Assembly (NCBI GenBank): GCA_973895155.1
Contig: OZ316894.1
Span: forward strand, 27,024,340-27,088,339
Length of the DNA: 64,000 nucleotides
Source of the DNA: Marsupella aquatica
Taxonomy: Eukaryota > Plantae > Marchantiophyta
Reading direction: 5' to 3'
Every line of letters begins with the position of its first letter. Position 1 is the first letter of the stretch. The notes below the pieces were generated by a model that saw only the letters and a program-made list of their open reading frames with translations, searched no databases and was not told the DNA's origin. Shown here piece by piece: positions 1-46,938 of this stretch. The translations under genes and the position numbers were made by a program.

Positions 1-29
1 TTTTTTGCCAGCGCCTGGCGCTGGCAAAA

Positions 30-2500
30 TCATGGATAGCAATACTTACTCTTCTTTCCAGATTTAGTAGACTCGTTCGGTGCTGCTAGCTCCGCTTTGG
101 CTTTCGCGCGAGGTTTGCGACTCCGGTCCACATGCACAACAGTTGTTTCACAGATAGTTTGCAAGTTTGTGGCAGACTTGTCTACATCGTCAAGTAGACC
201 CTGCTTCATGTCGGACACAAGTTTTGCTGGCATCTGAGACTTTGAAAGCTTATGGAAGGCATCTTTTTCCCTTTGATCAAAAGGAGAATCCCACTATCTG
301 TATCTAGATACCAGGGGCAGTGAGTTCTCTCCCATTCTGTCATTGGTCTCGGAGGAAATATGCCCTCCGTGGGGTACATAGAGTACAAATCAGCCAAGGC
401 ATCATCTTCACTTATTGAAATCCACTTCATAAAAGCTGCAGGATATGCCCAGAAGTAATCAGGTTTGTTTACCTCCATGTGCATGTAGAACCTATACACA
501 AACCTCTTCGCTCGCTTCTGGTTTCTCCGGGTGTAATCTTCTTTGTCAGGGTACTTTGAAGGCCACATAGTGTGAAAGAACTTATTCTTCACGGAATCAC
601 CAAATCTCTTGAATTCATTTGTAACAAACTGAACTAGATCATCAAACGAACTACAATTCCACTCTTCCAATCTATTCGCGGGCATGGTTTGCTCAACTTC
701 ACATAGACATGAATGTAACATGCCAGCAGCAATTCCCTCCACACTATTCCAAGTGATCCAAGTGTGGCACCACTGTTTGACTGGATCATCGTTAACACTT
801 GCTGGGTGAAAAAACTGTCTCCGCAGCTCAGGATTGCAATGTGCCACAAGTAAAGTGCTTCGTAACTTTGGGTCTAGAGCAGAAACAGCGGTGAACAATC
901 GTGCGCGGTCCATCGTACATACAACGGTGTCAGGCTTCTTCTCTCTCTTGTTTCTCTCTGTGATAGCATACATTTCTGCACATGTACTGAGGAAATCTTC
1001 AAATTCAGGACTTAATAAGGGCGTAATTTTTGAAGACTTCACTGCCCAATCTTTGGTTGCGTCTTTCATCATGGCCGCATGCCGTTTTGAAATCTCGTCC
1101 GCCGACCATGGACTCCCTTGAGCCTCCGCTGCCTCCATGTCGAGTTTGAATTGATGCGAGTACGACTTTATCTTATTCTCACAAAGAATGTAAACAAGTG
1201 CTTCTTGTGGCATCTTCTTTGTATACCATGACCCCTTCCGAGTTTTCAGCGGAATGCTTTCAAACTTCTTGAAATTACCCGGGTCAATCAGTTTACTGTA
1301 ATACTCAAGGTCATGTGCCAGAATTCGTTTGATTCTGTCCGCATCCAGGATCCAGGAAGGCTCTACAACTGCTTGGCCAAGCCTACACGAACAAACGTTG
1401 AGAGTACAAGTCAATGAAAAACAATTCATGTATAAGCAGCGCCAAGCGCAAGTAAATACAGCACTCGCAAGATTTAAGGAAAGAATTGGAAATCATGAGA
1501 ACTTACTGATTCACGGTGTGCATAGCTGCCTCAATTTCAATGAGAGATCCCTTGTCTCCTTTAAATATTGTACAGAGCACACGAGGATGATATTTTGGAT
1601 TGTCCGGGTTCTCCTCTGTTACAAACTCCAGGAGTACAGCCTGTGATTTCCATCAAATACAGAGAACATCTTATCCTTCAAGACGAGAAAATCCGGGTCA
1701 GCCTCGCATTCAGCCTCAAACTTCTCGTTCTCCAATTGCCATATTCCTTGGAATGGTTTTTTTAATAAATTTTAATACCGTGAAAGACCCCACGGATAGG
1801 GGGAACAACAGCCCTTAATACAGGGACAGCAACAGCACACTAGTGAGCCACAAAGAGAGCCCAAAAGCACAAAAGAGAGCATCAAAGCCCCAGGAAGAGC
1901 CCCCCCTCAAAGAAGGGAAATAACACCGATCAAGAGAGCATATTGCCATATTGGATCCCATGAATCACGAATGTCCTGGGTACAGGTCAGAACAATTCCG
2001 TTCTCAACTGTTGGCTGCACATAGAAATGCATCCCTATCGAAGAGTTGTAACCCATACTACAAAAAGAGTCTTTCAGCTTCTCGATGGAAGAGCTATCTT
2101 TCTGCAGAGTACGAACCACCTCCATGTGAACCAATCGACACAGAGGGATTTGAGGCGGCTCCTTGTCAAATCCACGAGAATCCTTTCCAAAAGACATGAC
2201 ATGTTTCGAAATGAGATCAGTCTCAGCAAGCGCGCAATCCGCAACATCCTGGATCGCAATTGTGTCTACGTTGTCCATCTTTCTTTGCAAAGGATTTGGA
2301 CCCAAAACACCGCTGACAGAAATGAGCGGCAACAACTTTGAGGAACGAGTTACACGACATGTATAGACTGAACCAGTAAATGAAGACTGCAAAGATTCAG
2401 AATAAGCTCGCTCCTGGTCAGGAACCGCACTATACCCTCTGGAAGAAGAGGGGAATACCTCCATCGTCTTCCTTCTAGAAGCGTGCGAACTATCGTACAA
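30..2500 (-). pseudogene. Spliced ParB/Sulfiredoxin-like domain gene, disrupted by a LINE fragment and a frameshift
   Basis: Removing the 1746-1941 insert and one TSD joins ORF 1907..2500 (IPLCRLVHMEVVR...LKDSFCSMGY...WDPIWQ) in frame to LENEKFEAECEADPDFLVLKDKMFSVFDGNHRLYSW. DGNHRL fits the ParB/Srx GxxR box. After a 1-nt frameshift near 1625 it reads ...HPRVLCTIF...AAMHTVNQ; a GT(1506)-AG(1383) intron joins it in frame to ORF 206..1429. The tail ORF 30..233 is in another frame. Confidence 0.7.
1746..1941 (-). mobile_element. 5'-truncated 196-bp copy of the 3' end of the LINE at 38411-61131
   Basis: Reverse complement nearly identical to 60937-61131; 11-bp TSD ATTGCCATATT at 1735-1745 and 1942-1952. 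Confidence 0.95.
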
Positions 2501-3373
2501 TGAAATTATGGAACTATAATCATCTCTGAACGTGTAATATATTCTAGCAGGAGGATGACATAACCTAGAGGAAAGCCATTAGCTCTGATGTTTGGCGGTC
2601 CCAACGTCTGTATACGGAAGGTTTAATTACCAAAATCAAACGGTAGAAGATGCGTAACACACACAGAAGTCATAAGTTACCGTTGAATGTTACCGTTAAA
2701 GACATTTCCTAACATCATATCAATACTAGCGCCGGGCGCTAGCATTAATGATGACCATCAAGGTGAACAATTTAGAGTATGCTTATAATAGCGCCCGACG
2801 CTAGTATAAACTGGAAGAAATTTAGAGGTCTTTTTTTAAGGAGCTATGACATAAATTTCGGCCTTTCCACCCCCATATTTTATTAAAGTATCCTTCAGTA
2901 CATCGTTTACGGAGAAATATTTCTCAAATGTAATACTAGCGCCCAACACTAGTATAAATGTTCATTTATCATCCATAATCCATCAAAACCATCCTTTGAA
3001 GGCACCATTTATTCCCAATTACCACCTGGTATGTGGTCATAATGTTCATTTTCAGGGAATTTATTCTATACTAGCGCCGGGCGCTAGTTTGGAATGTCGA
3101 GATTTCAGACACATTTTTAGTGGCGTATTTTAGTTAGCGCCAGGCGCTACTAAAATTTGACAATACCTTGTCATATCTTATGGTCTGTTTAAATAAGGTT
3201 GGTGATCTTTTTAGCAATATGTTTGTGTCTGACATCCGGACTTCTCGGGGAAAAAACGACAAAAATCATTTATGGTGCCAACGGATCCTCCATCGTCAAT
3301 GTTTTATGTCGTATACAAACGGATCGGTTAACGTCAAATTCCCAGGTTTGACAGATATAAGCTGAACAATACC

Positions 3374-6300
3374 ATGAACTTTTCTTCTTTCAAACGCTAT
3401 AGCCCTCGGTTTTTGTTTTTGTTCACCATGTCTCGGTCTATCGTTCTTTCTCGATTCGGTTCTGAAGATATTGTGACTATCCCCGTCCCCATGGAAGATA
3501 CGTACAAGCAGGTCCGGGAGAGGTATCTCTGCGGGAGATTTGATTTGAAGATGAATGACATTGAGGCCATTGTTCGAGAGCTCGAATCCATTGATGATAT
3601 CGAGGATGCTGCAACGTTCAATGTCGATGACGGTGAACGGTTTTGGTATCTCGACGCAGGGATCTCGTACTCGGTTCGTTTAAGACAGCATGCAAGACTG
3701 TCCAGTTTCTCGCCGGTTCCATGTGATGTGGTTGAGATTTCTTCAAGTGAGGATGGAGATCGTACTCTAAGTCCACCATCGAAGAAGAAAAGCCCGCTCC
3801 CTGCTGTCGTGAAAGTTGAGACTCCGGGAAGCTCTAAGCAGTTGGAGGTCGTGTACCGGTGCAGTGCGATGGATACGTTACTCAAATCAACTGGTCATAG
3901 TGAGTTGTCACGGTTCATATCAGCGGGTGATTTCAGGCATGAACAAGTGTCTTGTCTGCCAACTAAGTAGAATGGTAACGTCGTGTTTGAGTTGCCGCCC
4001 ATTGATAAGATGCTCTCTAAAGGCTCTAGGCTTAGGGACATGGATCGTGCCAAAGATTGTTACATTTGGACACGCATATTTCCAACAACTGCAACTGTTC
4101 ATCCTAAAAACCTTTGGCAGTTTGGGAAGGTTACCTGTACGGGATTCATTGAATGCAGGAACAAGTCCTGCGACTATTTCCAAAGGAAGAAGAAGGCAAA
4201 TGCTAAGGCATGGCAGGGTACTCCAAAGCTCAGTGGTCAGTATGCTGTGGGATCTTTCATCGAAGAGGGAGGTGTTGTTTGTCATTACTGCGAACAAATT
4301 CCTTTTTGTGTGAAGTACTGCCCTGCCCGTTTGTTTTACATGTACCCCCAAGTATTACTTGATGCGGAAACATGTAGTCATATGTCCCGCCTGGCAATTC
4401 ATATAGGTGAGCACAACCATCCAGGTAGAAAAACCTTCTGTAGGAGTGCGGAGAAGATAGCTGAGGATCTAATTAAAAAAAAAACATGAAGCCAATCCTT
4501 TGTCAAAACCGGCAGGGATCTTGAATTCTGCTACAGGGTACTTAGTGAAATCTCTCTGCAAACATGTTGACGACATGGTCGATATCGAAGAAACTGAAAT
4601 ATGGAAGTCTCTGATGGTCCTTTCCACTCCGCAGAAGTTTGCATCTCTTTGTCGGAGCGTTAGGATAGACCAAAAAGGTCGGGGTGAATTAGATTTTCTC
4701 TTGCAAATGCAGAGGAGGATTCATGTGTCGTTTCTCCAGAGGTATTTGCTTCCAGGTCAGGGATGTCAGAACGATAGGCCTCACATCTTTAAAATGACCG
4801 TGAAAGGTCACGGTTCCGGTGTGGATCTCTTGAGGCAGATGCAACCGGGTGGAAGACTCGAAGGAGCCTGGGTAAGTTTCGATGTGATGCAGCGTGTCAC
4901 CACGGATTGGTTTACTTTCAGTGCACACGTCTACGACCACAATTTCCGTGCACTGTGTACAATTTTCACATGCGAGTTGAAAGGTGAAGACACTGAGTCT
5001 TTTGAAAAGGCATGGAGAGTGATGATTGAGGTTTGCAAAGAAAATGAACTTCACGAGGTTGTCATCCAAGGATTTATGGCCGACAATGCACAAGCTGGAT
5101 GGAATGCAGTGCAAAATGTTTTTTTTGGTGGACACCCGGACCCGGAGAGGGAGCGCTCTGATGCATTTCACTTTTATCAATCTTTTCATCGTCATTCCAA
5201 GGAAGGAGTACTGGAAGAATGTCAATCGGAGCATCGGAGACTTTGGGAGAAACTGAGAAATGCTCCATCATTTGTGGCAGCATACCGGGTGTCCCGAGAG
5301 ATTGTTGTGTGGTGGCAATCAGGAAATTGTGTCCCCGGAAAGCTGAAGATGCTGCAAAGCTGGATATCTTGGTGGGTTGTTCGCTGGCGCCAGTGGGGCA
5401 ATTTTATTCGAGTGGTAAGGCATCCATCTATTTAGACTGTAATGTTCATCAACTTCATATTAGCGCCAGGCGCTGGTTATTTTCTCCATACACGTCAAAA
5501 CAAGTAGTACAAGAAATTGAAGCCAATATGTAGTTAGAATTCAGTATTAAACATTGAAATTGTATTTTAGGCCTGTTCTACATATTTATGTTGCCAGCGC
5601 CGGGCGCTGGTAATAGAATACTACTTACGGTTGACATTTTCGTATGGCAGAGCAAAAGCGCTGAGGAAGGTTTAGGCTTGAAACGGGGGAAGGGGCCAAC
5701 TATATGGGAATTGGCGTTCCGTTCCGCCGATCAAGCAGGTTTGCCAAGATTGTTTGAAGAAGCGACTAATATGCTTCTATCTAACGCAGCAGAATTCGAT
5801 TTGGAAAGAAGTACTCCCCTGAATGGAGATTATAATGAAGAAGTCAATGAAGAGGAAGGGACATGCAACTGGGACTGTCTCTCCACAAGATTCCCATCGG
5901 CATGACACCGTTCTAATAACCACACCAAATACTCGTGGTTTGAAAAGGAAGAACCTGAACATAACTGACTTTTCTTCTATTCCCTCAAGTTCTGATCATC
6001 CTGTCACAAAGGCGGTGAATCTCTCAGGTATGGTCACATCAGAGAGTGATACTGATTCACTAGACTATACTCCTCAAACAACCCGAACAACAAGATCCTC
6101 AAAACCTCCGCTCAGTGCCCCAGCAGCACTTCAGAATCAACTTCCACGCACGATTGTGCTAGAGAAGGATGTCCCTCCGGGGCAGTGGCAGTTGCGACGG
6201 ACATCAAAGTATGGAGCAGGTTCGCAATGCAATGGTACACTGAATGGGAGTTCGGATCGCGATGAGTGTCGAAATCGTATCAAGAAGGTTGGCTTCCATT

Positions 6301-7034
6301 CGTCTGAAGGTGTTGTCGGAATTGTCGTGAAGGGCCATCGTCTCTTCAGGGGCGAACCCATCTCCGAAATGATTTGGTTTTGCCCGAACCAAGCGTGTTA
6401 CAAGAGTCATCCGCGTCGTGGTGTTCAGAAGCTTCCTCCTTTTCCTGACATTTTGCCTGTTCTGAAGGGTACGAGCCTGTCTCCTTCTGAAATTACATTC
6501 CTGGAAGAGCAAGGACTTGTCTTAGCGCAAACAACAGGATTGAGTCGATCTGTGCCATCTGCTTTTGACCTCAGGATAAATGTTAACGTGTTCCCAGAAA
6601 CAATAAGGTTTTTGGAGCCGAATCTCCGACTTGGTAGTCGGAATGGGAGGAACTCAAGGCCTCGGTCTAATCTCACTATGGGTCACACGAAGCGAATGGA
6701 GTCTGCACGACAAGAAGTGATGAGTTTGGATGGGGAATGGAATGTTCAGACCGGAAATGCTTTTGGAAAGCAATTTCGAATTCGAACCCATGAGAACCAT
6801 CGATCACCAAGCACATACTTCGTCCAAATCTGTATCTTCCCCGCTTGCTCTTGTGAAGACTTCTTCCTCCGACATTCGCGTGGCAAGTCATACATGCCTT
6901 GCAAACATCTATACTGGGTGTACATAAATGTTTTCAAACTTGAGATTGAGGAGTCGACTCTTTGTAGCCAACCTATTTTGACTTTAGGCGAAGTCAAGCT
7001 TGTGCTGGAGAGGCAGAACTTGAATGGCTTATGA
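3374..7034 (+). pseudogene. MULE-like DDE transposase with an N-terminal Cys/His zinc domain (WRKY/GCM-like) and a C-terminal SWIM finger
   Basis: CTGFIECRNKSC...CHYC...CPARL...HIGEHNHP; core WVSFDVMQRV, GFMADNAQAGWNAV, DAFHFYQS; SWIM PACSCEDF...PCKHLYWV. Lesions: TAG at 3968, frameshift at the A-run near 4480, frameshift near 5830. Probable intron 5415-5650. Confidence 0.75.
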
Positions 7035-8056
7035 GAGAGATCAAAACTGCCCAATAGGTCGTCGTTCAATATAACGGTTATTCCCTATTTTGTCTTTTTC
7101 CAACGGATATTTAAGTTGTTTTATTGAGACTTTGTTGGTTAGCGCCGGGCGCTGGTTCTAGGAAACTGGATATTCATTGCTTCATTATGTACGTGCATTG
7201 TGGAAGAATGACCTCTTGTTTTATTTAAAATGTGTAAGTTGATTAAATTGTCTATTGTCTTCAAAGCCTCGAGGATGTGATTTGTCATTTGTTTGTGACG
7301 TTACAAGGTCCATTTAATCAACTCCTTTAGATTGGGTTGATTTGGACTCCACGATTGACATGTGCTATGGTGGGTCCCACTCTAAGGGTCACTATTTGGC
7401 GATGAAAATAGATTGATTTGCATGAATGTTTCTTTAGGCACACTCCTAATACCATGTTTTTTATCTTCTACAATAAATTGTTGTGTCAATGGAGGATTGA
7501 TAGTACACTTCATCCATCGGATGGCACAAAATAATTGTTTGTTTTAAACTTTATTGCCCCCCAAAAAATTATGCCATTAGAGTGGTGGATATGCACCTTA
7601 GAGTGGTGGATATGCACGTTATGGTTCAGGCAAAACTGGTAACAGGGACAAGCTTACTGGTAACAGGTACAATTTCCCTGTTAACAGAAAATAAACCCCT
7701 GGTAACAGGTTTTCTGTTTTCTGTCATGGCTATCATACCCGCAGAGCTTGAACAGGTGCATTGTAGATTGGGCGAGAATGTAGACTTGCAACAAATAGTT
7801 TCGACTCAGAAAGTAGAATTAAAATTCAAGGATGACCAATTGCACATAGCTCTTGCAAAGGTTGAAGAGTTGGAATGTACAGTGAGGAATTTGAAGAGAA
7901 AGAAAGTGTCGAACGTTGAACCAGTTATACATCACGGAACCAAAGAGGCAAGCTCATGGACGTCCATTACTTGGTTCAACCTCCAACAATGAAATGACAA
8001 CAGTGCCAGTGCCATTTAAAAATCGCGTATAGAGGGATGAGATTGCAAGTTGTTCT

Positions 8057-10934
8057 TTGTCTGTGGTCTCGCAATTGACTCGTATTAATTTGGAGGACCC
8101 CCCAAAAAGGCGACGACTGTTGTGGTCTTTTGATAATGAAGGGGATAGCTTGGATCATGTTGACATTGACGCTACCTCCGTGCGTCGTACAATCACAGAT
8201 TCCTGTTCAGATTCAGATTCAGATTCAGAGATGGACTTTCCCCGAGTCCGAGTCCAACCTTTTTCGCAAACAGAGGAACGAGTGAGTAAACTAACCATGT
8301 CGCAGCGTCTTGTCCAAATACTCAGTTTGGACGAGTAGAGCCGGTTAAGAAGGCTGACTGTTATTCCATGACCATTGCAGGAATACATCGATGATAGGGA
8401 CTTCACAGGAGAAGCAAGCCCACCAGATGGGCTTATGCAAAATATGACAGTTTACCAACATCAACGGAAAGGTCTATTCTGGATGTTGTCGAGGGAGAGT
8501 GGTGATTCCGAATGTTTTGGGGGTATTTTGGCAGATGACCAGGTAAAACCCTAAAGCTCACATCATTTCCTAATGTTGAGTGGGCTGCGCATTGACTTCG
8601 GGGTCATCATGTGTTTTGTGGTGTGAACTTGGAATTTTCTTCCCCATTGCATGAAATGAACTAACTATATTTGTTGGTAGGGAATGGGGAAGACAATTCA
8701 ACTGATTACACTCTTAGTCACCAATCGACCACCCAGAAGCAAGACCCTTATCGTTTGTCCTAGAAGTGTTATGACTCAATGGAAACGTGAGATTACCACT
8801 AAAACTACTGCAAGGGCAAATGTAAAGGTGTTAATATTTCACGGGTCGGACAGATGTATGGATCCAAAGCAGTTGGCCTTATATGATGTTATAATTACCA
8901 CTTACGGCACTCTCGCCCAACATTCCACTGCAGACCCACCTACACTGAGAAGAAAAGGGAAATTAAGTCAAAAAATTCCTGTGGAGCCAACACCCAAGAA
9001 AACGAAGGATCCATTGCCTCTTTGCCTGGAGCAGGTACAATGGTACAGGGTGATTCTAGACGAGTGTCAGGCAATCTCAAACCATAGGAGTGGCAGAGCA
9101 TTAGCTGCTTGCAACCTACATGCAAGAAGCAGATGGTGTGTAAGTGGAACTCATGTGTCAAATTCTACTTGGGAGGCATACAGTTATTTCAAATTTCTTG
9201 GATACCCCCCTTACTGTGACATAGACCGGTTCAAGATTTTGAGGTAGCATATTGCAAAAAGTAGGAAAGCTGGACACGCAATACTACACAAGGAGCTGAG
9301 GGCCATTACATTGAGAAGAGATAAGAGTAAGACAACTACAACTACAATGTTCACATGTGTTGGAATTGGACTTTTCCATTATTTGGAATTGGTTGAATTT
9401 CATATGGATTTCAATGTGTTGTATGTTTGTATGCAATCTTATAGTTGGACATATTTTGTTTGCAGGTATCCTGAATCTACCTAAGAAGCATGTAAGAGTA
9501 GCTCATCTCGACTTTTTAGTTGAAGGCGATGCCATAGTGTATAAGAAATTAGAGGCAAGGAGTGCAGCGGAAGACTCGGTATGTCCAAAGTTTGGCCCAC
9601 CCTATGTGGGTGTACTTTGTCATTCTTCAATTGTGCACAGATACCGTGGTTGCCCTGTTGTTTTGTACAATTACTCAATCGGGTCGATTTGTGGGCTTCA
9701 CAGAAGGGAAATAAGAAAGAGAAAGCTAAATTGCTGTCGTTGATGCTGAGAATGAGACGCCACTGTGGGCATCGTGACCTTGTCTTTCACAATGAAAAAG
9801 AAGATAGTGTGAATACTCCCAAGATCCAACCTGATGGAGTCCGTTCAGGCGAATTGGTAAACAAGTTGTTGGATGCTCCAGAAGGGGTGACTTGTAACAA
9901 GTGCCAGGTGATTTTTTGCACATAGTAAATCCTATTTGTAAATCCAGTACCCCGTGGGAGTGTTGTTCAACCGGTAGCGATTGGTGAAACATTTAACATT
10001 GCACACTAACTTTGAAGTCCATTTTTGTAATATTTGCAGGGTGAGCTTTTTGATGACCCCATGATTTCCATCTGTGGTCACTATTACTGTTCCAGTTCAG
10101 CTTGTTATTTTGATCCGCTGGAAGAGGACATAATATGCGGAGCACCACACTGTAAGCAGCAAATTTCATGGAGTACGGTGTACAGAGTATGTGATATATG
10201 TACGTCGTCTGGCACTGAATTGGCAGAGGAGGACTTGGAAATTCCCGGTTTTCATACTTCTGGGCCATCACCCAAAATTGATGGTGTCATGTCTTACTTG
10301 AACAAGCTGCGAGAGTCTGGAAGTGACGATAAGACCATTGTGTTTTCTCAATGGACCGGCTTAATTGACTTGTTATAAGGAACTCTTGAAAGTGCAAACA
10401 TCCAGTTCACAAGGGTGGACGGGAGCATGAGTTTGGAGAAGCGTGACCAAAATCTGAGAGACTTTGCCGAATCTCGCCAGGTATGCATAAAGCACCCCAT
10501 ATAGGTTGTTTTGGTGCATGTTTTTGAGAAATTGTACATGGGTCACTCACTAAGCATTTCACTACACTGGATTGATTCAGATACAAGTCGCCCTACCGTC
10601 ATTAAAGGCTGCCAATACGGGATTAAATATCACGGCTGCCAATCATGTACTCTTTACAGATATATGGTGGAATCCAACAGCAGAAGATCAAGCAATGGAC
10701 AGAACTCATCATCTAGGGCAGACAAAAGAAGTGTTTGTTACACATTTCCTAATGAGGAATACTATTGAGGAGACATTGTGGCATGTACAACAGAGAAAGA
10801 GGACACTGATTGATGAATGCGTACACGGAAGTTTGAGTAGCGGAAAAAAGGATAACGCAATATTGCAGGAAGTACTGAAAGAGGAGCGACTCAGGTTGTC
10901 TAGGCAACAGGCAGTAGGAAGGCCGAGACGATAG
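8057..10934 (+). pseudogene. SNF2-family helicase with internal RING finger (RAD5/16-like, resembling plant CHR27/CHR28)
   Basis: GGILADDQ|GMGKT across intron 8543-8680, TLIVCP, TTYG, ILDECQ, SGT, RING (CNKC..CGHYYC..CGAPHC), IVFSQW, RVDGSM, SLKAANTGLNITAAN, WWNP..DQAMDRTHHLGQ. Stops at 9245 and 10376. Confidence 0.9.
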
Positions 10935-11702
10935 AGCATTCACAAATTAAGGCACATTGCTCGCCATCTAGAGGCTTTTGAGGCAGGCTTTGAGACTCTT
11001 ACAGTTATGACGAGTGATTGGAGGCCACTTGAGCTGAGCTAATGACATCCTCTACCACCATGTTGCCCAAGCATTTGCAAAACCTCCAGTTGGTGGTGTG
11101 CAAAGAGGTGCGTATGTGCCGTACATGTTTTAGAGGGTCACTCTATAAAATTGTATTTGAAGTAGGCTAAGGTTTACTCCCATTGGATATGAGATGCAGG
11201 TGACGAGAATGCTGATAGTGTATGCACCACACAGGGCCTAAAAAAGGATGCATCTATGGGCACATAACAAGTGGGTGAGATATGGCTTTGCATAGCACAA
11301 GTTCTGACACGAGTATGTGGGCAGAAGAGAGAAAGGAAGTTCGGAAATTGACCATATTGTGATTGCAGCGGTGTATATCCTCCTCTGCATATAATGTCCA
11401 GCTTCCTCTAACAATATGTGGCCTTTTCTTTCACCAGGTTATGTTTGTGATGCTTCATGATGTGTTGGATGTTGGTGTCAGACATCTAGCCATAGAGTAT
11501 CATGGTATGGATGCGTCCTTGCAATTGATTTCCCGGTTATTGTCCAAGATTGTGCTGCAAGTGAACAGTAAGCTCTTCGGGCTAGCTGCCTAGTTTTTGA
11601 GCAATATGGCTGGTTGTGGTGGGCCAATTGGATATGTAGATTCAGCCCCGACTGAGGGGAAAAAGCAGTGAAAAGTTGGAAGATGTCATTCCTGAGTTGC
11701 TG

Positions 11703-13263: not shown

Positions 13264-13670
13264 GGGTAATCTAATAATCGAGTAATGTACAACTAAGGTT
13301 AATGTTAGGAATACATCTGAACCTCGGGGTAATCCAATCACGAAGCAATGTACTAGACAGGTTAATCTTAGGATATTGTGCCATACACACGGATACGAAA
13401 GTTGGGGTAATCTTATCCATCAATAAATGTACATTAATTAATGTTCAAGATTTGTGCCATACACATGGATACAAAAGCTGGGGTAGTCCTACACAAGGAT
13501 ACGAAACGCAAGTCGGGGTAATCTTATAATTAATAAAGTACTAGTAACGTTAATGTCCGGAAATTGGCCACACCCATGGATACAAAAGCTGGGGTAATCC
13601 TACACATAGATACAAAGCAAATGCCGGGGTATCCTACGCATAGATACGAAGCAAATGCTGGGGTAATCCA
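13264..13670. repeat. Cluster of about 8 GGGGTAATC motifs in degenerate ~35-bp units
   Basis: Recurring gatac(a/g)aa...ggggtaatc(c/t) blocks. Confidence 0.75.
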
Positions 13671-14807
13671 ATAATTAATTAAAGTATGAATGAATGTATT
13701 CAGGAATGTACTAAGCCGGGCTGTAAAAATGTGGGGTTTTACATACATGGACACAAAGACTATAAACGCGACGACATGATGTAATCATGCAGGTTAGGTA
13801 AAGTAGGAAGGCTGTTTGTTACACCAACAGTCTTCGGCCACAAATGAGGTGTTGTACAACACATTTGTTATGTTGTACAACCATCTATTTGAGTAGTGTT
13901 TTTTATCTAAATGCCAATGTCCAATGCAAGGGAAAATTGGCAGGTCATGTGGGACTGGGGAAAAATATATTTTGTTTATGTGAAGTGTGCCTCACATGTC
14001 GCTTCTAGGTTCCAAAAATCTAGGGTTGACGGTAAAAATAAACGACGACACCAGAATGGGGTAGGGGGAGTTTAGGGTCCATTTATATTGAATGTAATGA
14101 GAGAATTGTTTACTAGAATAAATGGTACCCCATATTTTAATAATGTGTCTATTGGTCAATACCCAGGAAAGAAAATACCGTCCTATCTTCTTTGCATTTC
14201 AACCGACGCACTGTAATGCTTGCCTTTCTGGGGAACAAGGTAGCCAAAATAAATTCACTGAAGAGAATAGATACGTTCAAAACTCCCGACTTTAATTTAC
14301 AAATACTACAAAAAAATATTTGACTCTTACCTGAAGTTTTCCTATTGTCTAAAATCTTAAAGTTTCCCTTTCTTGAAGCTCAAATTGTTTTTCCTTCCCT
14401 GCCCTCCCTCAGGTTTAATTTTTTCCCTAGCGCCTGAAGTTGGAGTTTTTTTCCTTCCCTCCTGGAGGTGAAGTTTTTTTTTCTTCCTGGAAAAAGCTGA
14501 ATTTTTTTTGCTTGCTTTGGTTTTTGCTATTTTTCTTCTCTCCCACTTTCACATTATGTAGGTTTACATCATGTGTGAAAAAAACTAGGATACAACGTAT
14601 GGATTTGATAAAAAAAATCACCCCTGGTTTAGGGAACTAAAACAGAGCAGGTAAATTTAGGCATGTACTTCGGCCAGTATTTGTCCATGCAATACCCAAA
14701 ATGTTGGTCTCGTGAGGTTTAGGGTCTTTTCAGTACGTTCGGAGTCCTTCTGCCGGCGCGGGGCGCCTTCATGGGGTTCCCTGCCCGCTTTGTTGCTTGC
14801 TATGACT

Positions 14808-15361
14808 AATAAAAGTACCCTCATTAATAAGAGTACCCTCATGCACAAGGCCCAACACAAGGGTACCCTTAGGAGTCAGATAAGAGTACCCTCACTGATA
14901 AGGGTACCCTCATTATCAAAGTACCATTGTTGATAAGCGTACCCAATTATAAGAGTACTCTTGTTGATATAAGAGTACCCTCATTGATAAGAGTACCCTC
15001 ATACGCAAGGGTACCCTCAGGAAATAAGAGTATCCTCATTGATAAGGGTACCCTCAGGAAATAAGAGTATCCTCATTGATAAGGGTACCCTCGTTGATCA
15101 AAGTACCATTATTGATAAGCGTACCCATTGATAAGAGTACTCTTGCTGATATAAGAGTACCCTCATTGATAAGAGTACCCTCATATGCAAGGGTACCCTC
15201 AGGAAATAAGAGTATCCTCATTGATAAGGGTACCCTCGTTGATCAAAGTACCATTATTGATAAGCGTACCCATTGATAAGAGTACCCTCGCTGATAAGAG
15301 TACCCTCACTGATAAGAGTACCCTCAAGCACAAGGGTACCCTCAGGAGATAAGAGTACCCC
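14808..15361. repeat. Minisatellite of ~18-bp GATAAGAGTACCCTC units with a ~145-bp higher-order repeat
   Basis: About 30 monomers; the block gataagggtaccctcgttgatcaaagtacc recurs at 15078 and 15223, with a variant near 14897. Confidence 0.9.
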
Positions 15362-16979
15362 CATTCACACGGGGAGCAATGAAAATAGGGATAATTGTAA
15401 CCACGTCCAAAAAGTGACATCTTTGATAGCCATTCAAAAACACTGTCCTTCAAAACCTCGAGGACTTTAGTTTAAGAACTTTTCTAACTAAAAGTTCAAC
15501 TTGAATGTTTTCATAACAAAGAATCCAATAAAGTGTAAACTTCAATTTTATGGTGTCAATTTTTTTAGATCTTCCCACACTGTAGCAAACAAATCCACAT
15601 AAATTTTTTCAAGATTTTAATTCTAATTCAGTAAAAATTATAATTCCGGTCAAATAGTACACGAACCATTTCAGATCTGAGTACCGAAATGCAGCTGTAA
15701 GTTGTAATTTTTATCATTAGATTTATGAATATTTTAACATGTACTAGGTGGGAAGAAAGGGGGAATTTTGATGTTAAGGTACTCACCTTCATAAATCTAC
15801 TATTGATTTGTCCCAAGGAGTGTACAGTTCTTTCCTTGGTCTTGCCTCAATATTTGTACATGGTGAATTAGGATGATCCTGTCTGCTGGAATTTTATTTG
15901 TTTGCCTTATACTAAAGGTACATACCATGAAGTTAGCCCACCTAAGTTCAAGCTCTGAGGTGCATGATTACGTACATAGTTCCAAGATTCCATTAAGGAA
16001 TGTTAAAGCTGCATAGATGTAACTCAATTATTGCTCAGGTCATAAAACACTATTACAGTCAAGACAAAATCACTATGGGCTACCAAAATACAAATCCCAT
16101 AACACTTTGATTAATTTTTTTGGACTGTAACACTTTGACACGCCCTATTCATCCTTTTGGATTGCTCTACGCTAAAGGTGCACTAAAAGAACTGAAAGAT
16201 TGGGAAAGGCAAAAAATTCATTTTCCTTTGGGCCTTTGTATGCCCGTTTGTATGTCATTCCGGAAGTACTAGGGTTAGGGAGGGGTTTTCTAACTAAGGA
16301 ATCTTAATTACCTGCATCTTGTGGGCTGAGATTTTAGCTTTTTGTCATATCCCAATCCGACACACTATGAAATTAGTCTGCCTGAGTTCAAGCTTAGAGG
16401 TGTGCAGGATTACACAGTTCCAATATTTGGCTCCTGCTCTACACCAAAGGCACACTGAAAGAATGGGAAAGGGTGGAGCCGTGGCTCCTCGTGTGGCTCC
16501 CACTCTATGCTAGAAAGGAAAATGTCGCAATAGGAATTTATGTCATACAGAGGTGTACTGAAAGAAAGGGAATGGGCAAAAAATTCCTTCTCCCTGGGCT
16601 TGTGTATAACATTCTAGACACACTGGATGGGTCTCCTCAAGAATGTAAGTACCTAGGCTGGTGCAAGGGGAGAGAGCATTGGTGGTAGATTAAGAGCTTC
16701 GAATATATGTATTCATGAAGACACAAAAAGTATTGTTAATTTGGTCTTGCTTCCTATTGGCTAAGACCAATTCAAGCATGGAAGCCTTAATTAGGGACAC
16801 TTGTACTTAGTTAGTGCCCGCTTCTTGTTAGGTGATTCATAGGAATCCACATTATTATCCCTCTAGAGCAAATCTTTGGTGACGGCTTGGATCATAGAAT
16901 GAGCGTGAATATTATACTGTAGTTAAACATAATTGTACAGATTGAATAGTTAAACATAATTGTACGGATTGAATCACAC

Positions 16980-17465
16980 TAGATTTATTACAAAACATAG
17001 CTACGTGTCTCTAGATCTAGTTCCCCTACAATTGTTTCTAGTTGAACCAAGGTTGATGGGTAGGGACAGTACATGGGTTTGTGCGTGCATAGACTTTGTG
17101 GATCTTCCTCGAAGTGGTGGATTTCATTTGTGCCTATCACCATAGTAACCGGATATCTGGACTCAAATGCATTTTAGCATGTTGAGCAATGGATGTTAAT
17201 TACTTGGTGTTATTGACACTGTACACCAGATTTATTACTGTACATGTCTATGTGCCTCTGGATCTAGTTCCCTACAATTCTTTCTAGTTGAACCCAAGGT
17301 TGACAAGTAGGGACAGTGGGTTCATGTGTGCATAGACATTGTGAATTTTCCCGAGGAAGTGGCGGATTTCATTCGCGCCAATCACCATAGCACCCGAATA
17401 TCCGGACTCAAATGCATTTTAGCATTCTTGGTGATGAATGTTAATTACTTGGTGTTATTGACACT
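16980..17465. repeat. Diverged ~245-bp tandem duplication
   Basis: Two copies of agatttatta...gatctagttccc...ggactcaaatgcattttagcat...ttattgacact; a 27-bp tandem pair lies just upstream. Confidence 0.8.
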
Positions 17466-22153: not shown

Positions 22154-24029
22154 AGGAGCTTTAGGCTGCTTTCCCTCGGCTTCGGGACTCGAGGCTCCTA
22201 CATACATTCAAACCCCCGGCTCGTGTTCCGGCCTCCTTCTTTCCTTGGCTCTGATAAAAGGGTTTTCCCTTGTAAGTCGGCTTGGGCCGACTTCTGGAGC
22301 AGTGTTCAGTACCGGTGCCGTTGCCGTTGCTATTCTCTTTTCCTTCTCCAACAATTTCAGCAGATTCTGCATGCTTGGTTGCTGCATCGGCAAGTCTTCC
22401 GTCCTTGGCCTAAACACCTGGTCGATTGTAGGACTGTCGGGCTGGTTGGGTTTCTCTGTTGCCGGCCTTTGTTTCGGAACCTCCTCTGGTGCCCTTGCCT
22501 GCAGGGGAAGTACCGGGGCAAAGATCTGACTTCGGGCATACCGGCACAACAGCGGCATGTGATAACCAAGCCAAGACACGCTTCCCTTGCCAATAACCTG
22601 TTGTTCCTCCTTCAAGATCTTCTTTAGTTGGGTGAGGAGGTACCCGTTGTAGTCCCGGCTTGGGTCTGGTCTCTCCGCCAGGTAGACTTGTGCCTTGCCA
22701 ATCTCTAGCCTCGGCAAGTTGCAGTGCATGGTTACCCACAAGAAATCGATTATCTCTCCTATGTGCGGGTTGGTGCAGGTGTTCCGAAAGAAGCCATTCT
22801 TCATTGATGGCCCTGGGAACGATCGGAACTCCTTGTCTGGCAAGGTCTTCCGGGTATCTACTTTGGTCTTATTGCCCATCGGTAAGCCAAACACTTTGGC
22901 AATCACTCGGGGAGTGAGATAGAAATCCTTCCCATACACCCTTGTGGAATTGGTCTCGGGCTCCCAAGATCCCACAAATTCTAATAAGTCTGAATCCGAC
23001 ACCTCCGGCTTCAGCCATGGTAATTTCATGAAGGCTTCCAAGTCGGATCCGGCCATGAAGCCTTGGTACTTCCAAGTCTGCATAGCCGTAAAGCATGCAT
23101 CCTCTTCACGTGCAAAGTGTAATTGCACTTCCTCGGGGAGGGTCGCAGCCCAGCCTTTCCAGGTGTCATCTCTTGTCGGAACGACATTGATGGGATCGAC
23201 CTCCTCTTCTTTGGCTTCTTCCTGCCTCCTGCTCCCTTGCTTGGCTGGCTTCCTTCGTGCCGCTGACCTCGTTCTCTTCGCAGGGGTGGTCTCTTCGTTG
23301 GCATTCCCTTTCCTTTTCATAGCTGCTGCCGTGGATATTTCTCCGAGGACGGTTGCCTTCGTCCACCCCTCCGTGCTACCCTTCAACTCCCAGTGTATGT
23401 CGTTGCAGCGGTTGATGGCTTCCCGGATGCCGACTATTCTGTTCTCACAAAATAGAAGGTCATCAAGTTTGTCGCCAGTAGGTGTCCACAGGAATTCAAC
23501 CGTGATGAGTTCTCCTCCTAAGAAGGCAGACTTCTACAGCTCCCACAGTCGAGCGAGCTCCTACTGTTCTCGAGCGGCTCTTTCCGATTCTTCATCCTCG
23601 TAGGTCCCAATGTACTCAGTTGCCCGTTCTAATAGGCATCCCCAAAAATGAGCAGCTTGATTGACGTTGCTCATACCCTTCTTTGAATTGATAGTTGGTA
23701 TCTGCTCCCGCCCCAAGTGCTTGCCTAAGCAGCTGATAGTAGTTGGCTTCACGTAGTTGTATGCTTAGTTCGTGCTTGCAAATGAGCACCCCCCTCCTGC
23801 CTGGTCTTCCTTCCCGTTAGTTACCCATAGCCGCCGGTACTTAGCGCGCCCTAACCCTAATCGTGTTCCCTCTCCCGACGTCCTTACTTCCGGCCTCGGC
23901 TCGGGTTCCATAGTTACCCTCAATTGTTTATATTTTTCTTGTTTTTTGTTACTATACTAATGTGTTTCTAGGGTACACTCTTGTTTTTACCATTTAAACT
24001 GGCCTAGTGATTCCTGGCTAGGCATCACA
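22154..24029 (-). mobile_element. Truncated, diverged LTR of the same gypsy family (first ~1.9 kb including part of the LTR ORF)
   Basis: Begins TGTGATGCCTAG at 24029 on the minus strand, like 42210. ORFs 23561..23752 and 22208..23386 align with the 1220-aa LTR protein; homology stops near 22154. Confidence 0.93.
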
Positions 24030-26176: not shown

Positions 26177-27392
26177 AACTTACAAATGAACGCCTGTCAA
26201 GATGCCCTAAGATCCTGTACACAACCCAAGGATAACATGTGACTTCTGGCTGAAGTATTTTAGTACCAATTCGATAGGCTCTTGACTCTGTCCTTTCTGT
26301 GGGTACAGTGAAATACGGGAGAAGGAACGAGCTTGTTGATACCTGGATAAGCCTTTCACAATTATTTCAATATTCTATTCTAAGATCATTGCATTCTTCA
26401 CAGATACCCGTTACTCTCAGTTGGAAAGGAGTCATGTAACTTTTGCAAGTTATCAGTACCAAACATCACAGCAGAGCAAGGGAGACAAGAAAATACATCT
26501 TTGGACGGAGGTAGGAATGCACCCTAGAACTCGAGAGGCTTACCGGTCTGCTATCCATTTCTGAACACTCATTGTAAAAAGATCACTGGGAACATAGCCG
26601 TCAAGAAATAACCACAAATTCATTGCACCTCGTGGAATCTCCTGGATTTTATCCTGGTAGCAGATCTGATCGTGGGTTGTGGTGCTGACAGAGGAAGCCC
26701 AGAGCACCTGAGTTCAATCAGAAGTTGACAAGACTAGCACTTTGGGTGGATGGATGGTCAACCCCAGCGTGGGTTAAGGCAAGGGCGAATTTGGTTACTC
26801 ACTGCAGATTTCCATCTAATGTTAGTTATTGCACGAGAGATCGGTCTCAAGTCACTGCAAAAGGGATTGGCAGTAGGCATATGCATCCTGGTAGCACGGG
26901 TCAAACAATTGCTATGTTGAAAGATCGTCTACAGCGAGGCATTGCTATAGACTCGTACACATATGTTAAAGTTCTGCAAATGTGCTTGCAACAGAAAGAC
27001 CTTCCAGGAGCCAAGCAAATTCATGATTGCATCATCGAGAGTGGAATTCACGAAAATCCATATGTGGCAATCACGCTTTTGAATGTGTATATAAAATGCG
27101 GAGGATTATCGGATGCACGTAGAGTTTTTGATCAAATTCAGAAGAAATGTGTTATTACTTGGACCAGCATGATTGCGGGATACGCTAGGAGTGATCATGC
27201 TGAATCTGCACTCGAAATTTTCAATCTAATGCGCCAAGAAGGCGTGAAGCCGAATGAGATCACGTATCTGAGCATCTTGAATGCATGTTCAAGCCCATTA
27301 GCTCTCAATTGCGGAAAAGAAATTCATCAGCATATTCGACAGGCCGGCTTTGAATCGGACGTGCGTGTAGGGACTGCTCTCGTACTGATGTA
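26177..27392 (+). pseudogene. Tandem duplicate of the upstream region and 5' part of the PPR gene
   Basis: Nearly identical to 27404-28624 (offset 1227-1232); ORF 26725..27474 is truncated after the first PPR motifs. Confidence 0.95.
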
Positions 27393-27956
27393 TTTACAAA
27401 TGAAACTTACAAATGAACACCTGTCAAGATGCCCTAAGAGTCTGTCCTGTACACAACCCAACGATAACATGTGACTTTTGGCTGAAGTATTTTAGTACCA
27501 ATTCGATATGCTCTTGACTCTGTGCTTTCTGTGGGTACAGTGAAATACGGGAGAAGGAACGAGCTTGTTGATACCTGGATATGCCTTTCACAATTATTTC
27601 AATATTCTATTCTAAGATCATTGCATTCTTGACAGATAGCCGTTACTCTCAGTTGGAAAGGAGTCATTTAACTTTTGCAAGGTATCTGTACCAAAGATCA
27701 CAGTAGAGCAAGGGAGACAAGAAAATACATCTTTGGACGGAGGTAGGAATGCACCCTAGAACTCGAGAGGCTTACCGGTCTGCTATCCATTTCTGAACAC
27801 TCATTGTAGAAAGATCACTGGAAACATAGTCGTCAAGAAATAACTACAAATTCATTGCACCTCGTGGAATCTCCTGGATTTTATCCTGGTAGCAGATCTG
27901 ATCGTGGGTTGTGGTGCTGACAGAGGAACCCCAGAGCACCTGAGTTCAATCAGAAG

Positions 27957-30900
27957 TTGACAAGACTAGCATTTTGGGTGGATGGATGGTCAACCCCAGC
28001 GTGGGTTAAGGCAAGGGCAAATTTGGGTACTCACTGCAGATTTCCATCTAATGTTAGTTATTGCACGAGAGATCGGTCTCAAGTCACTGCAAAAGGGATT
28101 GGCAGTAGGCATATGCATCCTGGTAGCACGGGTCAAACAATTGCTATGTTGAAAGATCGTCTACAGCGAGGCATTGCTATAGACTCGTACACATATGTTA
28201 AAGTTTTGCAAATGTGCTTGCAACAGAAAGACCTTCCAGGAGCCAAGCAAATTCATGATTGCATCATCGAGAGTGGAATTCACGAAAATCCATATGTGGC
28301 AATCAAGCTTTTGAATGTGTATATCAAATGCGGAGGTTTATCGGATGCATGTAGAGTTTTTGATCAAATTCAGAACAAGAGTGTTATTACTTGGACCAGC
28401 ATGATTGCGGGATACGCTAGGAGTGATCATGCTGAATCTGCACTCAAAATTTTCAATCTAATGCGCCAAGCAGGAGTGAAGCCGAATGAGATCACGTATC
28501 TGAGCATCCTGAATGCATGTTCAAGCCCATTAGCTCTCAATTGGGGAAAAGAAATTCATCAGGGTATTCGACATGCCGGCTTTGAATCGGACGTGCGTGT
28601 AGGGTCTGCTCTCGTACTGATGTACGCTAAATGTGGGCGCATCACCGAGGCAAGGAAAGTTTTTGAAAAGTTGACTAATCGAAATGTCATTACATGGAAT
28701 GTTATGATTGGAGCATGTGCAGAACGTGGTGATGGTGTGGAAGCATATCGACTATTCCTCCAAATGAGACGGGATGGCTTTGAACCAAATGCATTCACCT
28801 ATACGAGCATCCTGAATGCATCCGCATGTGATGGGGGTTTGGCATGGGTGAAGGACGTTCATGGCCACGCTAGGAAAGCGGGACTGGAGTCAAATTTGCG
28901 CGTGGGCTCTGCGCTGGTTCACATGTATGCAGAGAGTGGCAGGATAGGTGACGCCCGACTGGTTTTTGACAGAATGGAGAAACGCGATGTAGTCACATGG
29001 AATGTAATGATCGGTGGACTTGCACAACACAGAAGTGGGCATGAAGCTTATCAATTGTTTCTCCAGATGCGACGGGAAGGCTTCAAACCAAACGCAGTCA
29101 CTTATGTGAGCATCTTGAATGCGTCTGCATGTGCGGGGTCTTTGGAGTGGGTGAGGGAGGTTCATGGGCATGCTAGCAAAGTGGGACTGGAATCAGACTT
29201 GCGTGTGGGCACTGCACTGGTCCACATGTATGCAAAGAGTGGCAGTATAGATGACGCCCGACTTGTTTTTGAGAGAATGGAGAAACGCGATATAGTCACA
29301 TGGACTGTAATGATCGGTGGACTTGCACAACACAGAAGTGGGCATGAAGCTTATCGATTGTTTCTCCAGATGCGACGGGAAGGCTTTGAACCAAACGCAG
29401 TCACTTATGTGAGCATCCTAAATGCGTCTGCAAGTGCGGGGTCTTTGGAGTGGGTGAAGGAGGTTCATGGCCACGCTAGCAAAGCCGGAATGGAATCGGA
29501 TTTGTGTGTGGGTAGTGCACTCCTTCAAATGTATGCAGAGAGTGGCAGTATAGCCGACGCCCGACTTGTTTTTAACAGAATGGAGAAACGCAATGTAATC
29601 ACATGGAATGTAATGATAGGAGAGCTTGCACAACACGGATCTGGGCATGAAGCATATCGGTTGTTTCTCCAAATGAGACGGGAAGGCTTTGAACCAGATG
29701 CATTCACTTATGCAAGTATTCTGAATGCATCTGCAACTGCGGGGGCTTTGGAGTGGGTAAAGGAGGTTCATGGCCACGCTAGCAAAGCCGGACCGGAGTC
29801 GAATTTGCGTGTGGGTAGTGCACTCGTTCACATGTATGCAGAGAGTGGCAGTATAGCTGACGCCCGACTTGTTTTTAATAGAATGGAGAAACGCAATGTA
29901 ATCACATGGAATGTAATGATAGGAGGGCTTGCACAACATGGATTTGGGCATGAAGCATATCGGTTGTTTCTCCAAATGAGACGGGAAGGCTTTGAACCAG
30001 ATGCATTCACTTATGCGAGTATTCTGAATGCATCTACAAGTGCAGGGGCTTTAGAGTGGGTGAAGGAGGTTCATGGCCACGCTAGCAAAGTCAGACTGGA
30101 GTCGGATTTGCGTGTGGGTAGTGCACATGGAACGTAATGATCGGGGGACTTGCACAACATGGATGTGGGCACAAAGCCCTGGAACTTTTCAGACAAATGA
30201 GTGCAGACGATGTGAAGCCCACCGAGACGTCATTCACAGCTGTGTTGTCAACCTGTTCTCATGGAGGCCTTGTTGATGATGGCCGTAGAATCTTTTTTGC
30301 TATGACGCAAGATTATGGTATCGAGCGTACTGTTTTTCACTATAACCTCATGGTGGATATTCTTGGGCGGGCAGGACACGTGGAAGAAGCAAAGCAGTTG
30401 ATCAGTGAGATGCCGATCGAACCAGATGATGTAACTTGGACAGCCTTGCTTGGGGCTTGTAGAACTTACGGTAACGTGGAGCTAGGTGAACTGGCCGCTA
30501 ACGAGCTTTTCAAGTTGGAACCCGGTAAGGCCTCTACATATGTGTTGCTCTCCAATATCTATGCTACAGTTGGGAAGTGGGAGAAGGTGTCATCTGTGCG
30601 CACTATGATGCAAGAGAGAGGTGTTTGGAAGGAGCCAGGACGTAGCTGGATGAAAGTTCATGACAAGATCCATGAATTTGTGGTGGGGGATACATCTCAC
30701 CCAGAAGCGGAGGCGATCTATACTGAGCTGAATAAATTGACTGAAAAACTGGAGGCAAAAGGCTACATTCCGGATACCCAGCTTGTATTGCATGATATCA
30801 ATGAAGAGGATAAAGAGCTAGGCCTTTGCTCTCATAGTGAGAAGTTGGCTATTGCTTACGGACTTATGCACCTACCTTGGGGAGAACCTATTCGTGTAAG

Positions 30901-31042
30901 TAAGAACCTTTGGGTGTGTTTAGATTGCCACTCAGCAACCAAGTATATCTCTAAGGTGAGCGGACGCGAGATTATTGCAAGGGATGCAAATCGGTTCCAC
31001 CATTTTAAAGATGGAATGTGTTCTTGTGGTGATTACTGGTGA
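27957..31042 (+). pseudogene. PLS-class PPR protein with E and DYW deaminase domains (organellar C-to-U editing factor), frameshifted
   Basis: Repeated 101-aa PLS triplets, PG box (PGRSW), HSEKLA, CxDCH, terminal CSCGDYW. An 82-bp deletion near 30126 splits it into ORFs 27957..30137 and 30137..31042. Confidence 0.95.
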
Positions 31043-36755: not shown

Positions 36756-36936
36756 CTATTTATGTTTTCAAATGCAAATGTTGTAGGCAAGTTGAAATAA
36801 AATTTTCAATTGAAAAGTGCATGAATGTGTCATCATAGTTTTTTTGCAATTCCATGCAACTGTTAATTGAAGTACTAGACCCTAAGTACTACACTTGATA
36901 AATACAAACTAGCCAAGTGCTACTCTACTCGGGACT

Positions 36937-41096: not shown

Positions 41097-41359
41097 GGTT
41101 TAGGACAAAAAAACAACGTTCGCTGTACTTCTCATGAGGATCCATGTCTGATGCAGGTGCGGGCGAAAGCTCAACAAGGACAAACAGATTGCTCAGCCCT
41201 GAAACGAGGAGTCCGAGAAGTGAACAAAGAGGCGCAGCACAAACTAAGATGAGAGACGACTACTCCCTGATAGGGGGACTGACTGAGCAGCAAACGGGGA
41301 GCGGCTCTCAGGGCTGGATGCTATCCCCTGGAGGACGGAATCGTATCTAGGGTGACGGT

Positions 41360-46869: not shown

Positions 46870-46873
46870 TTTT

Positions 46874-46891
46874 TGGCGCTAGATGGAGGGG
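46874..46891 (+). promoter_or_regulatory. Primer-binding site
   Basis: TGGCGCTAGATGGAGGGG, 4 nt after the LTR end; the cognate tRNA was not determined. Confidence 0.75.
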
Positions 46892-46938
46892 GCATTTCTT
46901 AAGCCGTGAGATATGAAGTTAGAACGGAAGCGTAGGTA

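Follow-up and report, generated by a model that had tools for sequence, protein, structure and literature searches.

The left end of a 64-kb stretch of genomic DNA from the liverwort Marsupella aquatica (contig OZ316894.1; hereafter the window, meaning the whole stretch) holds a decayed transposon, apparently Mutator-like, whose two genes face away from a shared spacer and in which a palindrome occurs ten times, always in non-coding DNA. One gene codes for a putative transposase and the other for an accessory protein whose relatives have a predicted ParB/Srx-like fold. The palindrome is retained in the introns of diverged copies of the element. We suggest, with a confidence that falls a little short of an even chance, that the accessory protein binds the palindromes and shields the element from silencing, a self-targeting comparable to that of the VANC proteins. 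A sequence-only reading of this stretch had proposed an element-encoded, self-targeting factor; the placement of the motif, its retention in diverged introns and the fold of the relatives speak for that proposal, in which the binding is what we infer.

Palindromes in the non-coding parts of the element

The palindrome AGCGCCNGGCGCT has seven exact matches in the window, at 10, 2728, 3073, 3136, 5462, 5596 and 7141, and none of 100 dinucleotide shuffles yielded any match. Three decayed sites, at 1438 (two mismatches), 2790 (one mismatch) and 2938 (three mismatches), bring the total to ten. The nine palindromes of the sequence-only reading are thus real, the decayed pair at 2790 and 2938 included, but the site at 1438 had been overlooked. 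When the sites were scored with a profile, each being left out in turn, every one of the ten scored higher than all positions in 7801–64000, which bears out the earlier statement that the motif does not occur elsewhere in the window; the sole further match with two mismatches, at 57764, scored 1.8 bits, against 20.7–32.0 bits for the ten sites.

Palindrome 1 (10–22) is exact, is perfect over 3–29 and lies 27 nt into what is likely the second intron of the accessory gene, while palindrome 2 (1438–1450) lies in intron 1 of the same gene. Five sites (2728, 2790, 2938, 3073 and 3136) fall in the spacer between the two genes, two, both exact, in the transposase intron (5462 and 5596), and the last (7141–7153), also exact, 107 nt beyond the transposase stop codon. 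The spacer and transposase-intron sites are therefore where they had been placed before. One palindrome had also been put past the stop codon of each gene, which holds for 7141 but not for 10–22. All three introns of the gene pair, counting the likely one, hold a palindrome, and no site lies in a tandem array. As had been claimed, none of the ten is in an exon, although non-coding DNA makes up just 22% of positions 1–7300, taken here as the element region, under our gene model. The chance of an exclusively non-coding placement is P ~3e-5 when the seven exact sites are counted and ~3e-7 when all ten are, both values being rough, as the sites are not independent.

Aligning the sites revealed a half-site longer than first stated, TRCYAGCGCC, with R and Y each conserved in 20/20 half-sites, so that the full candidate target is TRCYAGCGCC-N-GGCGCTRGYA, a dyad of ~21 bp. 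Five of the six deviations from the core are changes of C to T, as the decay of methylcytosine would give. Within sites, the nearest 3 nt of the two arms pair in 18/30 cases, which is no excess (permutation p 0.21). Base classes that are kept without excess pairing of the arms fit the site of a dimeric protein. This observation also bears on the alternative that the palindromes work by forming hairpins, in DNA or in RNA, or have merely been left behind, as neutral sequence, by an internal duplication, an explanation we hold to be highly improbable. Long, site-specific hairpins can be drawn at some sites (−14.9 kcal/mol at site 10 and −9.6 at 3136), and the 9-nt flanks pair slightly more often than permuted arms (48/90, p 0.036). 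However, the nearest flanks do not co-vary, the flanks of separate sites are not duplicates past ~29 nt, no Rfam family was matched in positions 1–9000, and the motif persists in diverged introns, as described below.

The spacer that holds half of the sites (2465–3373) is AT-rich without being depleted of CpG. It measures ~0.9 kb rather than the ~870 bp given before, and the diverging gene pair around it is real, though both genes are broken. With the motifs removed, its observed-to-expected (o/e) CpG ratio is 0.97, exceeding all 62 control windows (median 0.61), a level that fits long-term protection from methylation. Five sites clustered in a shared promoter region could also mean that a host transcription factor recognizes the palindrome, which the element would have gathered as an enhancer, perhaps to be expressed in the germline, and intronic enhancers are common in plants. 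Yet a dyad of ~21 bp is long for a plant factor, and no site was found in the other 56 kb of the window, which includes host genes; we judge this explanation to be very unlikely.

Retention of the motif in diverged copies

We aligned contigs from the public runs X1, X2, X3 and X5 (four of seven runs) to positions 1–9000 of the window. Over all identity classes, 958, 1686, 1739 and 236 contigs matched, respectively, and the summed depth in X1, which is no copy number, was ~380–1700 over 1–7800 versus 115–164 further to the right. The element is a dispersed, multi-copy family, and its copy in the window is decayed and dead: the accessory gene has frame breaks near 293 and 1626 and a 207-bp insertion, and the transposase gene an internal stop at 3968–3970 and frame breaks at 4473–4475 and near 5830. 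At all four frame breaks other copies differ by single-base indels.

The diverged copies were followed through joints, at which a contig passes from one window position to another; 15 of 35 were examined, together with eight rows of the letters between joints. In X1, X2 and X3, the joint 5407 to 7132 contains seven other letters, a GTGAGT donor that coincides in position with the donor of the window (5415), 11 further letters and then a 22-letter match that runs to the end of the motif at 7153. X5, a run labelled as another organism, has a joint 5408 to 3064 with the donor in register and a motif match 27 letters on. For the accessory gene, the joint 1384 to 2727 in X2 belongs to a diverged family in which 22 letters separate a motif match from the acceptor of intron 1. 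Among the joints examined, every diverged copy with a joint in the transposase intron, from any of the four runs, carries the motif there. Since these introns are otherwise unalignable, the motif has been kept and outlasts its flanks. The loss of the motif from other copies had been named in advance as evidence against self-targeting; the diverged copies, a handful of contigs, retain it in their introns.

The right end of the element lies after 7724, probably near 7800, as judged by the reach of the contigs (one from X2 covers 6915–7724) and by the falling depth. Two short arrays of 21-bp tandem repeats (7570–7687), unrelated to the palindrome, precede the fall in depth after ~7800 and are possibly subterminal repeats. 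The left end is beyond the window, and a self-comparison of the window gave no partner repeat for the ends of the element. Mutator elements have long TIRs, or else non-TIR ends, and target duplications of 8–11 bp. Where the depth falls, a broken and diverged gene for an SNF2-family helicase begins (7726–10935, plus strand; PF00176, E 2.6e-32). Its depth in X1 is ~105–125, compared with ~17–27 for the lowest contigs, so it may itself be multi-copy, and a longer form of the element possibly carries it as cargo.

The accessory gene and its ParB-like domain

The accessory gene is read on the minus strand. Exon 1 (1507–2464) codes for a disordered N-terminus followed by the ParB/Srx-like domain (IPLCRL...FYV...FDGNHR...AMHTVN). 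Intron 1 (1383–1506) has GT..AG borders, and its flanks join MHTVNQ to LGQAVV, comparable to MHNLNx-SHATVQ in Riccia proteins. Exon 2 (50–1382) codes for a helical domain of unknown fold and a basic linker. It ends at a GTAAGT donor at 49, which opens the likely intron 2 (1–49). Read-through at this donor adds S-K-Y and then a stop, and a comparable ending at about the same place (S/G-K/E followed by hydrophobic residues or a stop) was seen by eye, as a loose pattern, in 9/20 long-tailed unnamed homolog open reading frames (ORFs), being not clearly visible in the remaining 11. The spliced Riccia gene models extend past the position that corresponds to this donor. The gene most likely continues beyond the window edge, and the donor, together with the longer Riccia models, places palindrome 10–22 in an intron and not after a stop codon.

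The insertion that disrupts exon 1 (1735–1952) is 207 bp long, is bordered by an 11-bp duplication (1735–1745 and 1942–1952) and is skipped by contigs of X1 and X2. That it might be an intron was ruled out by the duplication, by its recurrence elsewhere in the window and by its absence from other copies of the element. The two copies of this small, recently mobile element of 200 bp, which is non-coding, lie at 1741–1940 and 60937–61136 and are 98% identical, one of them having the 11-bp target duplication.

A search with exon 2 returned 88 homologs, and a profile of the long homologs gave 75 matches, all of them annotated hypothetical proteins of Riccia sorocarpa (for example R1sor_024992, R1sor_007218 and R1sor_015790). 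The Riccia proteins are ~21–26% identical to the helical exon of the window and form a separate branch of the tree described below, and their N-terminal domain can be aligned with exon 1 of the window (tblastn E 1e-12 to 1e-8). Sequence searches of the PDB returned noise only, protein searches by word index that used pieces of the window had no match, and scans of metagenome and viral contigs found no related locus. One gene model, P0067, fuses the N-terminus of this type of transposase to an exon of the accessory gene, the exon being 93% identical to a Riccia protein, which shows that the two genes are neighbors elsewhere too; as both parts are on one strand, a Riccia-like genome can hold the pair in tandem or in rearranged order.

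To assign the ParB-like domain we relied on the homologs and on a predicted fold. The AlphaFold2 model (70-row alignment, mean pLDDT 71.4) is that of a Riccia relative, P0094, and not of the window protein, to which it is ~21–46% identical over the matched stretches. Residues 89–266 of the model match KorB (Z 6.8, rmsd 2.9, 97 residues aligned), PadC (Z 5.7) and SerK (Z 5.2), chains that we take to be all of the ParB/Srx fold. For exon 2, a single-sequence model reached pLDDT 42 and was unusable, and its search in the Atlas stayed below 0.8. For a Riccia homolog, the language model of the Atlas gave clusters of DUF3723 as the nearest neighbors of the ParB-like part (0.96, 188/256 features), while the Pfam model for this family, PF12520, was matched in no protein scanned. 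A cluster of cnidarian proteins scored 0.95 to the ParB-like domain in the same resource, a hint of animal relatives.

The sequence-only reading had described this protein as ParB/Srx-like and had suggested a CTP-dependent clamp that loads at parS-like sites. The first description corresponds to a weak fold match obtained through the Riccia relative, but the clamp is unsupported. ParB CTPases carry the motifs GxxRxxA and EN(I/L)QRE (PMC11229316). The GxxR part is present in 41/47 motif-bearing proteins, and the complete motif is replaced by GNHRxx(T/V/S), position 7 being T, V or S in the rows displayed and S in the window. Instead of EN(I/L)QRE, all 32 matches have AMH(N/G)LN and the window has AMHTVN. 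Moreover, no helix-turn-helix was identified, residues 323–374 of P0094 giving generic helical matches only. A clamp-like spreading of the protein is possible, whereas its dependence on CTP would find no support in these motifs.

The transposase gene

On the plus strand, transposase exon 1 (3374–5414) codes for a Cys/His-rich N-terminal region and for a candidate catalytic core, D..67..D..29..DxxH..75..W. The intron spans 5415–5650, and exon 2 (5651–7034) codes for a linker and a C-terminal SWIM-like finger (CSCEDF...PCKHLYW at 6846). The assignment to the MULE/SWIM type had been made before and rests on motifs judged by eye. The spacing D-67-D-29-H-75-W is near that of Muta1, 69/24/94, the motif reads DxxH rather than CxxH, and the finger has the pattern CxC...CxH; the Muta1 residues are D214, D283, H307 and W401 (PMC5225508). 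A Pfam match at threshold is lacking: neither gene of the window reached it, no MULE family was matched, and SWIM was found with an E of only 3.6. A candidate catalytic Glu (SAEE) lies 11–12 residues past the W, across the intron, where ~18 would be expected. The transposase is thus best described as Mutator-like, with no finer class, and its third catalytic residue is uncertain. A tblastn search of plasmids with the transposase core had no match.

The transposase itself might bind the palindromes through its Cys/His-rich N-terminus, for self-activation or for assembly of the transposition complex, leaving another role to the ParB-like gene. Mutator transposases bear DNA-binding domains of the WRKY-GCM1 type (PMC1702500), the AtMu1c transposase is reported to bind and hypomethylate its own copies without an accessory factor (bioRxiv 10.64898/2026.08.24.746577), and, among the joints examined, all diverged copies joined within the transposase intron have the motif in it. 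Nevertheless, the motifs described for AtMu1c and Muta1 are terminal or subterminal, whereas nine of our sites are internal. Even the last one has at least 570 nt of shared sequence beyond it, as the X2 contig over 6915–7724 indicates, and the repeats nearer to the end, at 7570–7687, are different ones. We regard binding by the transposase as unlikely.

A methylase-like domain in the relatives

Overlooked by the sequence-only reading was a C-terminal domain of the relatives that resembles DNA methylases and that is likely also encoded by the window gene, past the window edge. In P0094, residues 789–1070 are predicted to adopt the fold of beta-class N4C/N6A methylases (M.MboIIa, Z 16.5, rmsd 3.2, 201 residues aligned; Foldseek match to CcrM, E 9.6e-9), the closest folds being CcrM, M.MboIIa, M.PvuII and the rotifer N4CMT. 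As in the beta class, motif IV precedes motif I in the Riccia relatives. The Pfam family PF01555 matches 5/27 long proteins below its curated cut-off (best score 25.9 bits against 26.7), and a custom HMM found a methylase-like region in 24/151 stored proteins.

Is the window gene part of this group? We built a tree of 26 chosen rows with a midpoint root. It places the window protein in a group of 13 rows of unnamed ORFs (support 100/99) and seven Riccia rows apart (97/99), the branch that unites these two groups being weak (86/81). Two unnamed ORFs with the methylase-like region fall outside both groups, and the methylase-like tail is therefore likely to be ancestral to the family, as far as this tree can tell. 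We consider it probable, although by no means assured, that the window gene itself has methylase-like exons beyond the window edge.

One could then suppose that the accessory protein is an active methylase, directed to its own element by the palindromes and writing there N4-methylcytosine (4mC) or N6-methyladenine, so blocking or overriding 5-methylcytosine (5mC). The folds just listed suit this idea, as does the motif DF(A/V)GGWGA for binding S-adenosylmethionine (SAM), which several Riccia proteins retain. A liverwort is reported to use 4mC (bioRxiv 10.1101/2021.02.12.428880), and a methylating role has already been proposed for an Ectocarpus protein (PMC12477816). Against it, the catalytic motif [DNS]PP[YFW] is present in 0/24 methylase-like homologs, motif IV being, where scored, mostly D(M/L/I)P(T/S)G; the best Pfam score does not reach the cut-off; and for the window copy the domain is only inferred. 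In N4CMT, a change of SPPY to APPA abolished activity (PMC8885841). We think an active methylase quite unlikely. Because motif IV lacks the aromatic residue, the domain is more likely to bind DNA as a non-catalytic module than to be enzymatically active.

A candidate role for the accessory protein

According to the explanation we favor, self-targeting by the accessory protein, the product of this gene, with its ParB-like domain and its likely methylase-like tail, would bind the palindromes as a dimer. The bound protein would keep the shared promoter and the introns of the element open against host cytosine methylation. A dyad with degenerate half-sites, placed in every non-coding compartment, fits a dimeric protein encoded by the element itself. 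The motif is, in addition, confined to non-coding DNA like the targets of VANC21 and kept in diverged introns, and the relatives of the protein have a ParB/Srx-like fold. That the accessory protein is the binder, and anti-silencing the outcome, is the most probable of the explanations, at a little under an even chance.

Several observations pull the other way. The fold match to ParB is middling, and a Z under 8 may reflect no more than a common arrangement; neither of the two ParB CTPase motifs is present in full, and the helical middle of the protein yielded no domain for sequence-specific binding of DNA. As for the methylase-like part, tblastn of the window does not find it, and the region lies within the ORF in 0/13 members of the window's own clade. 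The head-to-head layout of the genes is visible in the window copy only, the element being spanned by no contig, and a CpG-rich spacer is equally expected of any active bidirectional promoter. Finally, the case of AtMu1c shows a transposase that alone binds and hypomethylates its own element (bioRxiv 10.64898/2026.08.24.746577).

Neighboring features of the window

Further to the right of the element, tandem arrays with periods of 111, 34, 18, 182, 27 and 245 lie at 13395–13665, 14807–15365 and 16920–17465; among them is an 18-bp unit in 27 copies with a near-palindromic core. The reading frame of a PPR-E-DYW gene (27921–31042, plus strand) is broken near 30130, and immediately upstream lies a partial duplicate that is almost identical to it (26689–27474). 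Genes of this type are a mark of land plants, and its appearance, together with the liverwort homologs of the accessory gene, points to a bryophyte. Convergent DDE_Tnp_4 and Myb/SANT genes at 36159–38193 have the layout of PIF/Harbinger elements. An LTR retrotransposon (42271–56832), assigned by eye to the Gypsy type, has very long repeats, each with a coiled-coil ORF of ~1000–1200 aa. It is inserted into a LINE (39504–42214, resuming at 57793–60895). A fragment related to the retrotransposon is present on the minus strand (22208–23533).

Comparison with known systems

The closest parallels to the M. aquatica element in the literature come from algae, and its design is not new in concept, having been put forward in 2025 for transposons of red and of brown algae. 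In the brown alga Ectocarpus, Sola1-1_Ec32 codes for a 1104-aa protein with ParB-like and N4C/N6A methylase parts, proposed to bind and modify its own element (PMC12477816). As described there, it shares with our element an accessory gene on the strand opposite to the transposase and, with the relatives of the window gene, the combination of ParB-like and methylase domains. The two differ in host and transposase, a brown alga with a Sola transposase as opposed to a land plant with a Mutator-like one, and the comparison is one of architecture. The string "palindrom" is absent from the main text of that paper. The Plavaka elements of red algae carry PAG3, a ParB-like protein (HHpred e-value 0.29) with adjacent arrays of inverted repeats, for which self-binding was proposed, and PAG2, a PF01555 methylase; homologs are also reported from Mutator elements of Chondrus (Petroll et al., bioRxiv 10.1101/2025.02.11.637652). 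PAG3 is similar to the accessory protein in its ParB-like N-terminus, in the inverted repeats nearby and in the weakness with which ParB is detected. In contrast, it is reported to have a 2OG-oxygenase tail, the methylase being a separate protein, and its repeats form tandem arrays beside the gene, whereas the palindromes of our element are single and spread over introns, spacer and 3′ region.

With bacterial ParB and KorB the accessory protein has in common the arginine of GxxR and repeated dyad sites, and its predicted N-terminal fold may be the ParB/Srx fold of these proteins. The accessory protein departs from them in its CTPase motifs, in that no helix-turn-helix was found and no ParA partner was seen, and in having a long helical middle domain and eukaryotic introns. 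DUF3723 (PF12520), the family to which the language model pointed, is a conserved cargo of the fungal Starship transposons (bioRxiv 10.1101/2021.12.13.472469). Starships use tyrosine recombinases, unlike our element, and this tie should be taken as a lead only.

Within land plants the comparison is with the VANDAL elements, the only transposons for which, according to Petroll et al. (bioRxiv 10.1101/2025.02.11.637652), an accessory protein has been shown to bind the element's own sequence and to demethylate it. VANC21 targets introns, intergenic and terminal non-coding DNA through the motif YAGTATTAY, which is non-palindromic and forms same-orientation tandem repeats (PMC5735166). Both systems, then, join a Mutator or Mutator-like element to an accessory gene and to a short motif concentrated in non-coding DNA (10/10 sites in the window). 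They are set apart by the dyad sites of our element, which lie outside tandem arrays, and by the function of VANC being proven while that of the window protein is predicted; we saw no sign of homology between the two proteins, which were not aligned directly. The literature searched, which left out most subscription journals, gave us no account of such an element from a moss or a liverwort.

It is conceivable, if rather unlikely, that unrelated superfamilies (Mutator in a bryophyte, Plavaka and Sola in algae, perhaps Starships by way of DUF3723) share an old system of prokaryotic origin. A ParB-fold protein would then load on element-specific palindromes in every intron and in the promoter, spread, and exclude 5mC silencing by means of an active or a pseudo-methylase; if true, this would be a second anti-silencing system of land plants, independent of VANC. 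Accessory genes that pair a ParB domain with a modifier have so far been a proposal from algal genomes, and the locus described here widens their range to include a land plant and a Mutator-like element. It adds to the algal cases an exact candidate target, single palindromes in every intron in place of arrays, a placement conserved across copies and, as predicted from the relatives, a methylase-like domain whose active site departs from the usual form. As dozens of relatives are annotated in the genome of a liverwort, bryophytes allow direct tests of the binding and of its effects on methylation.

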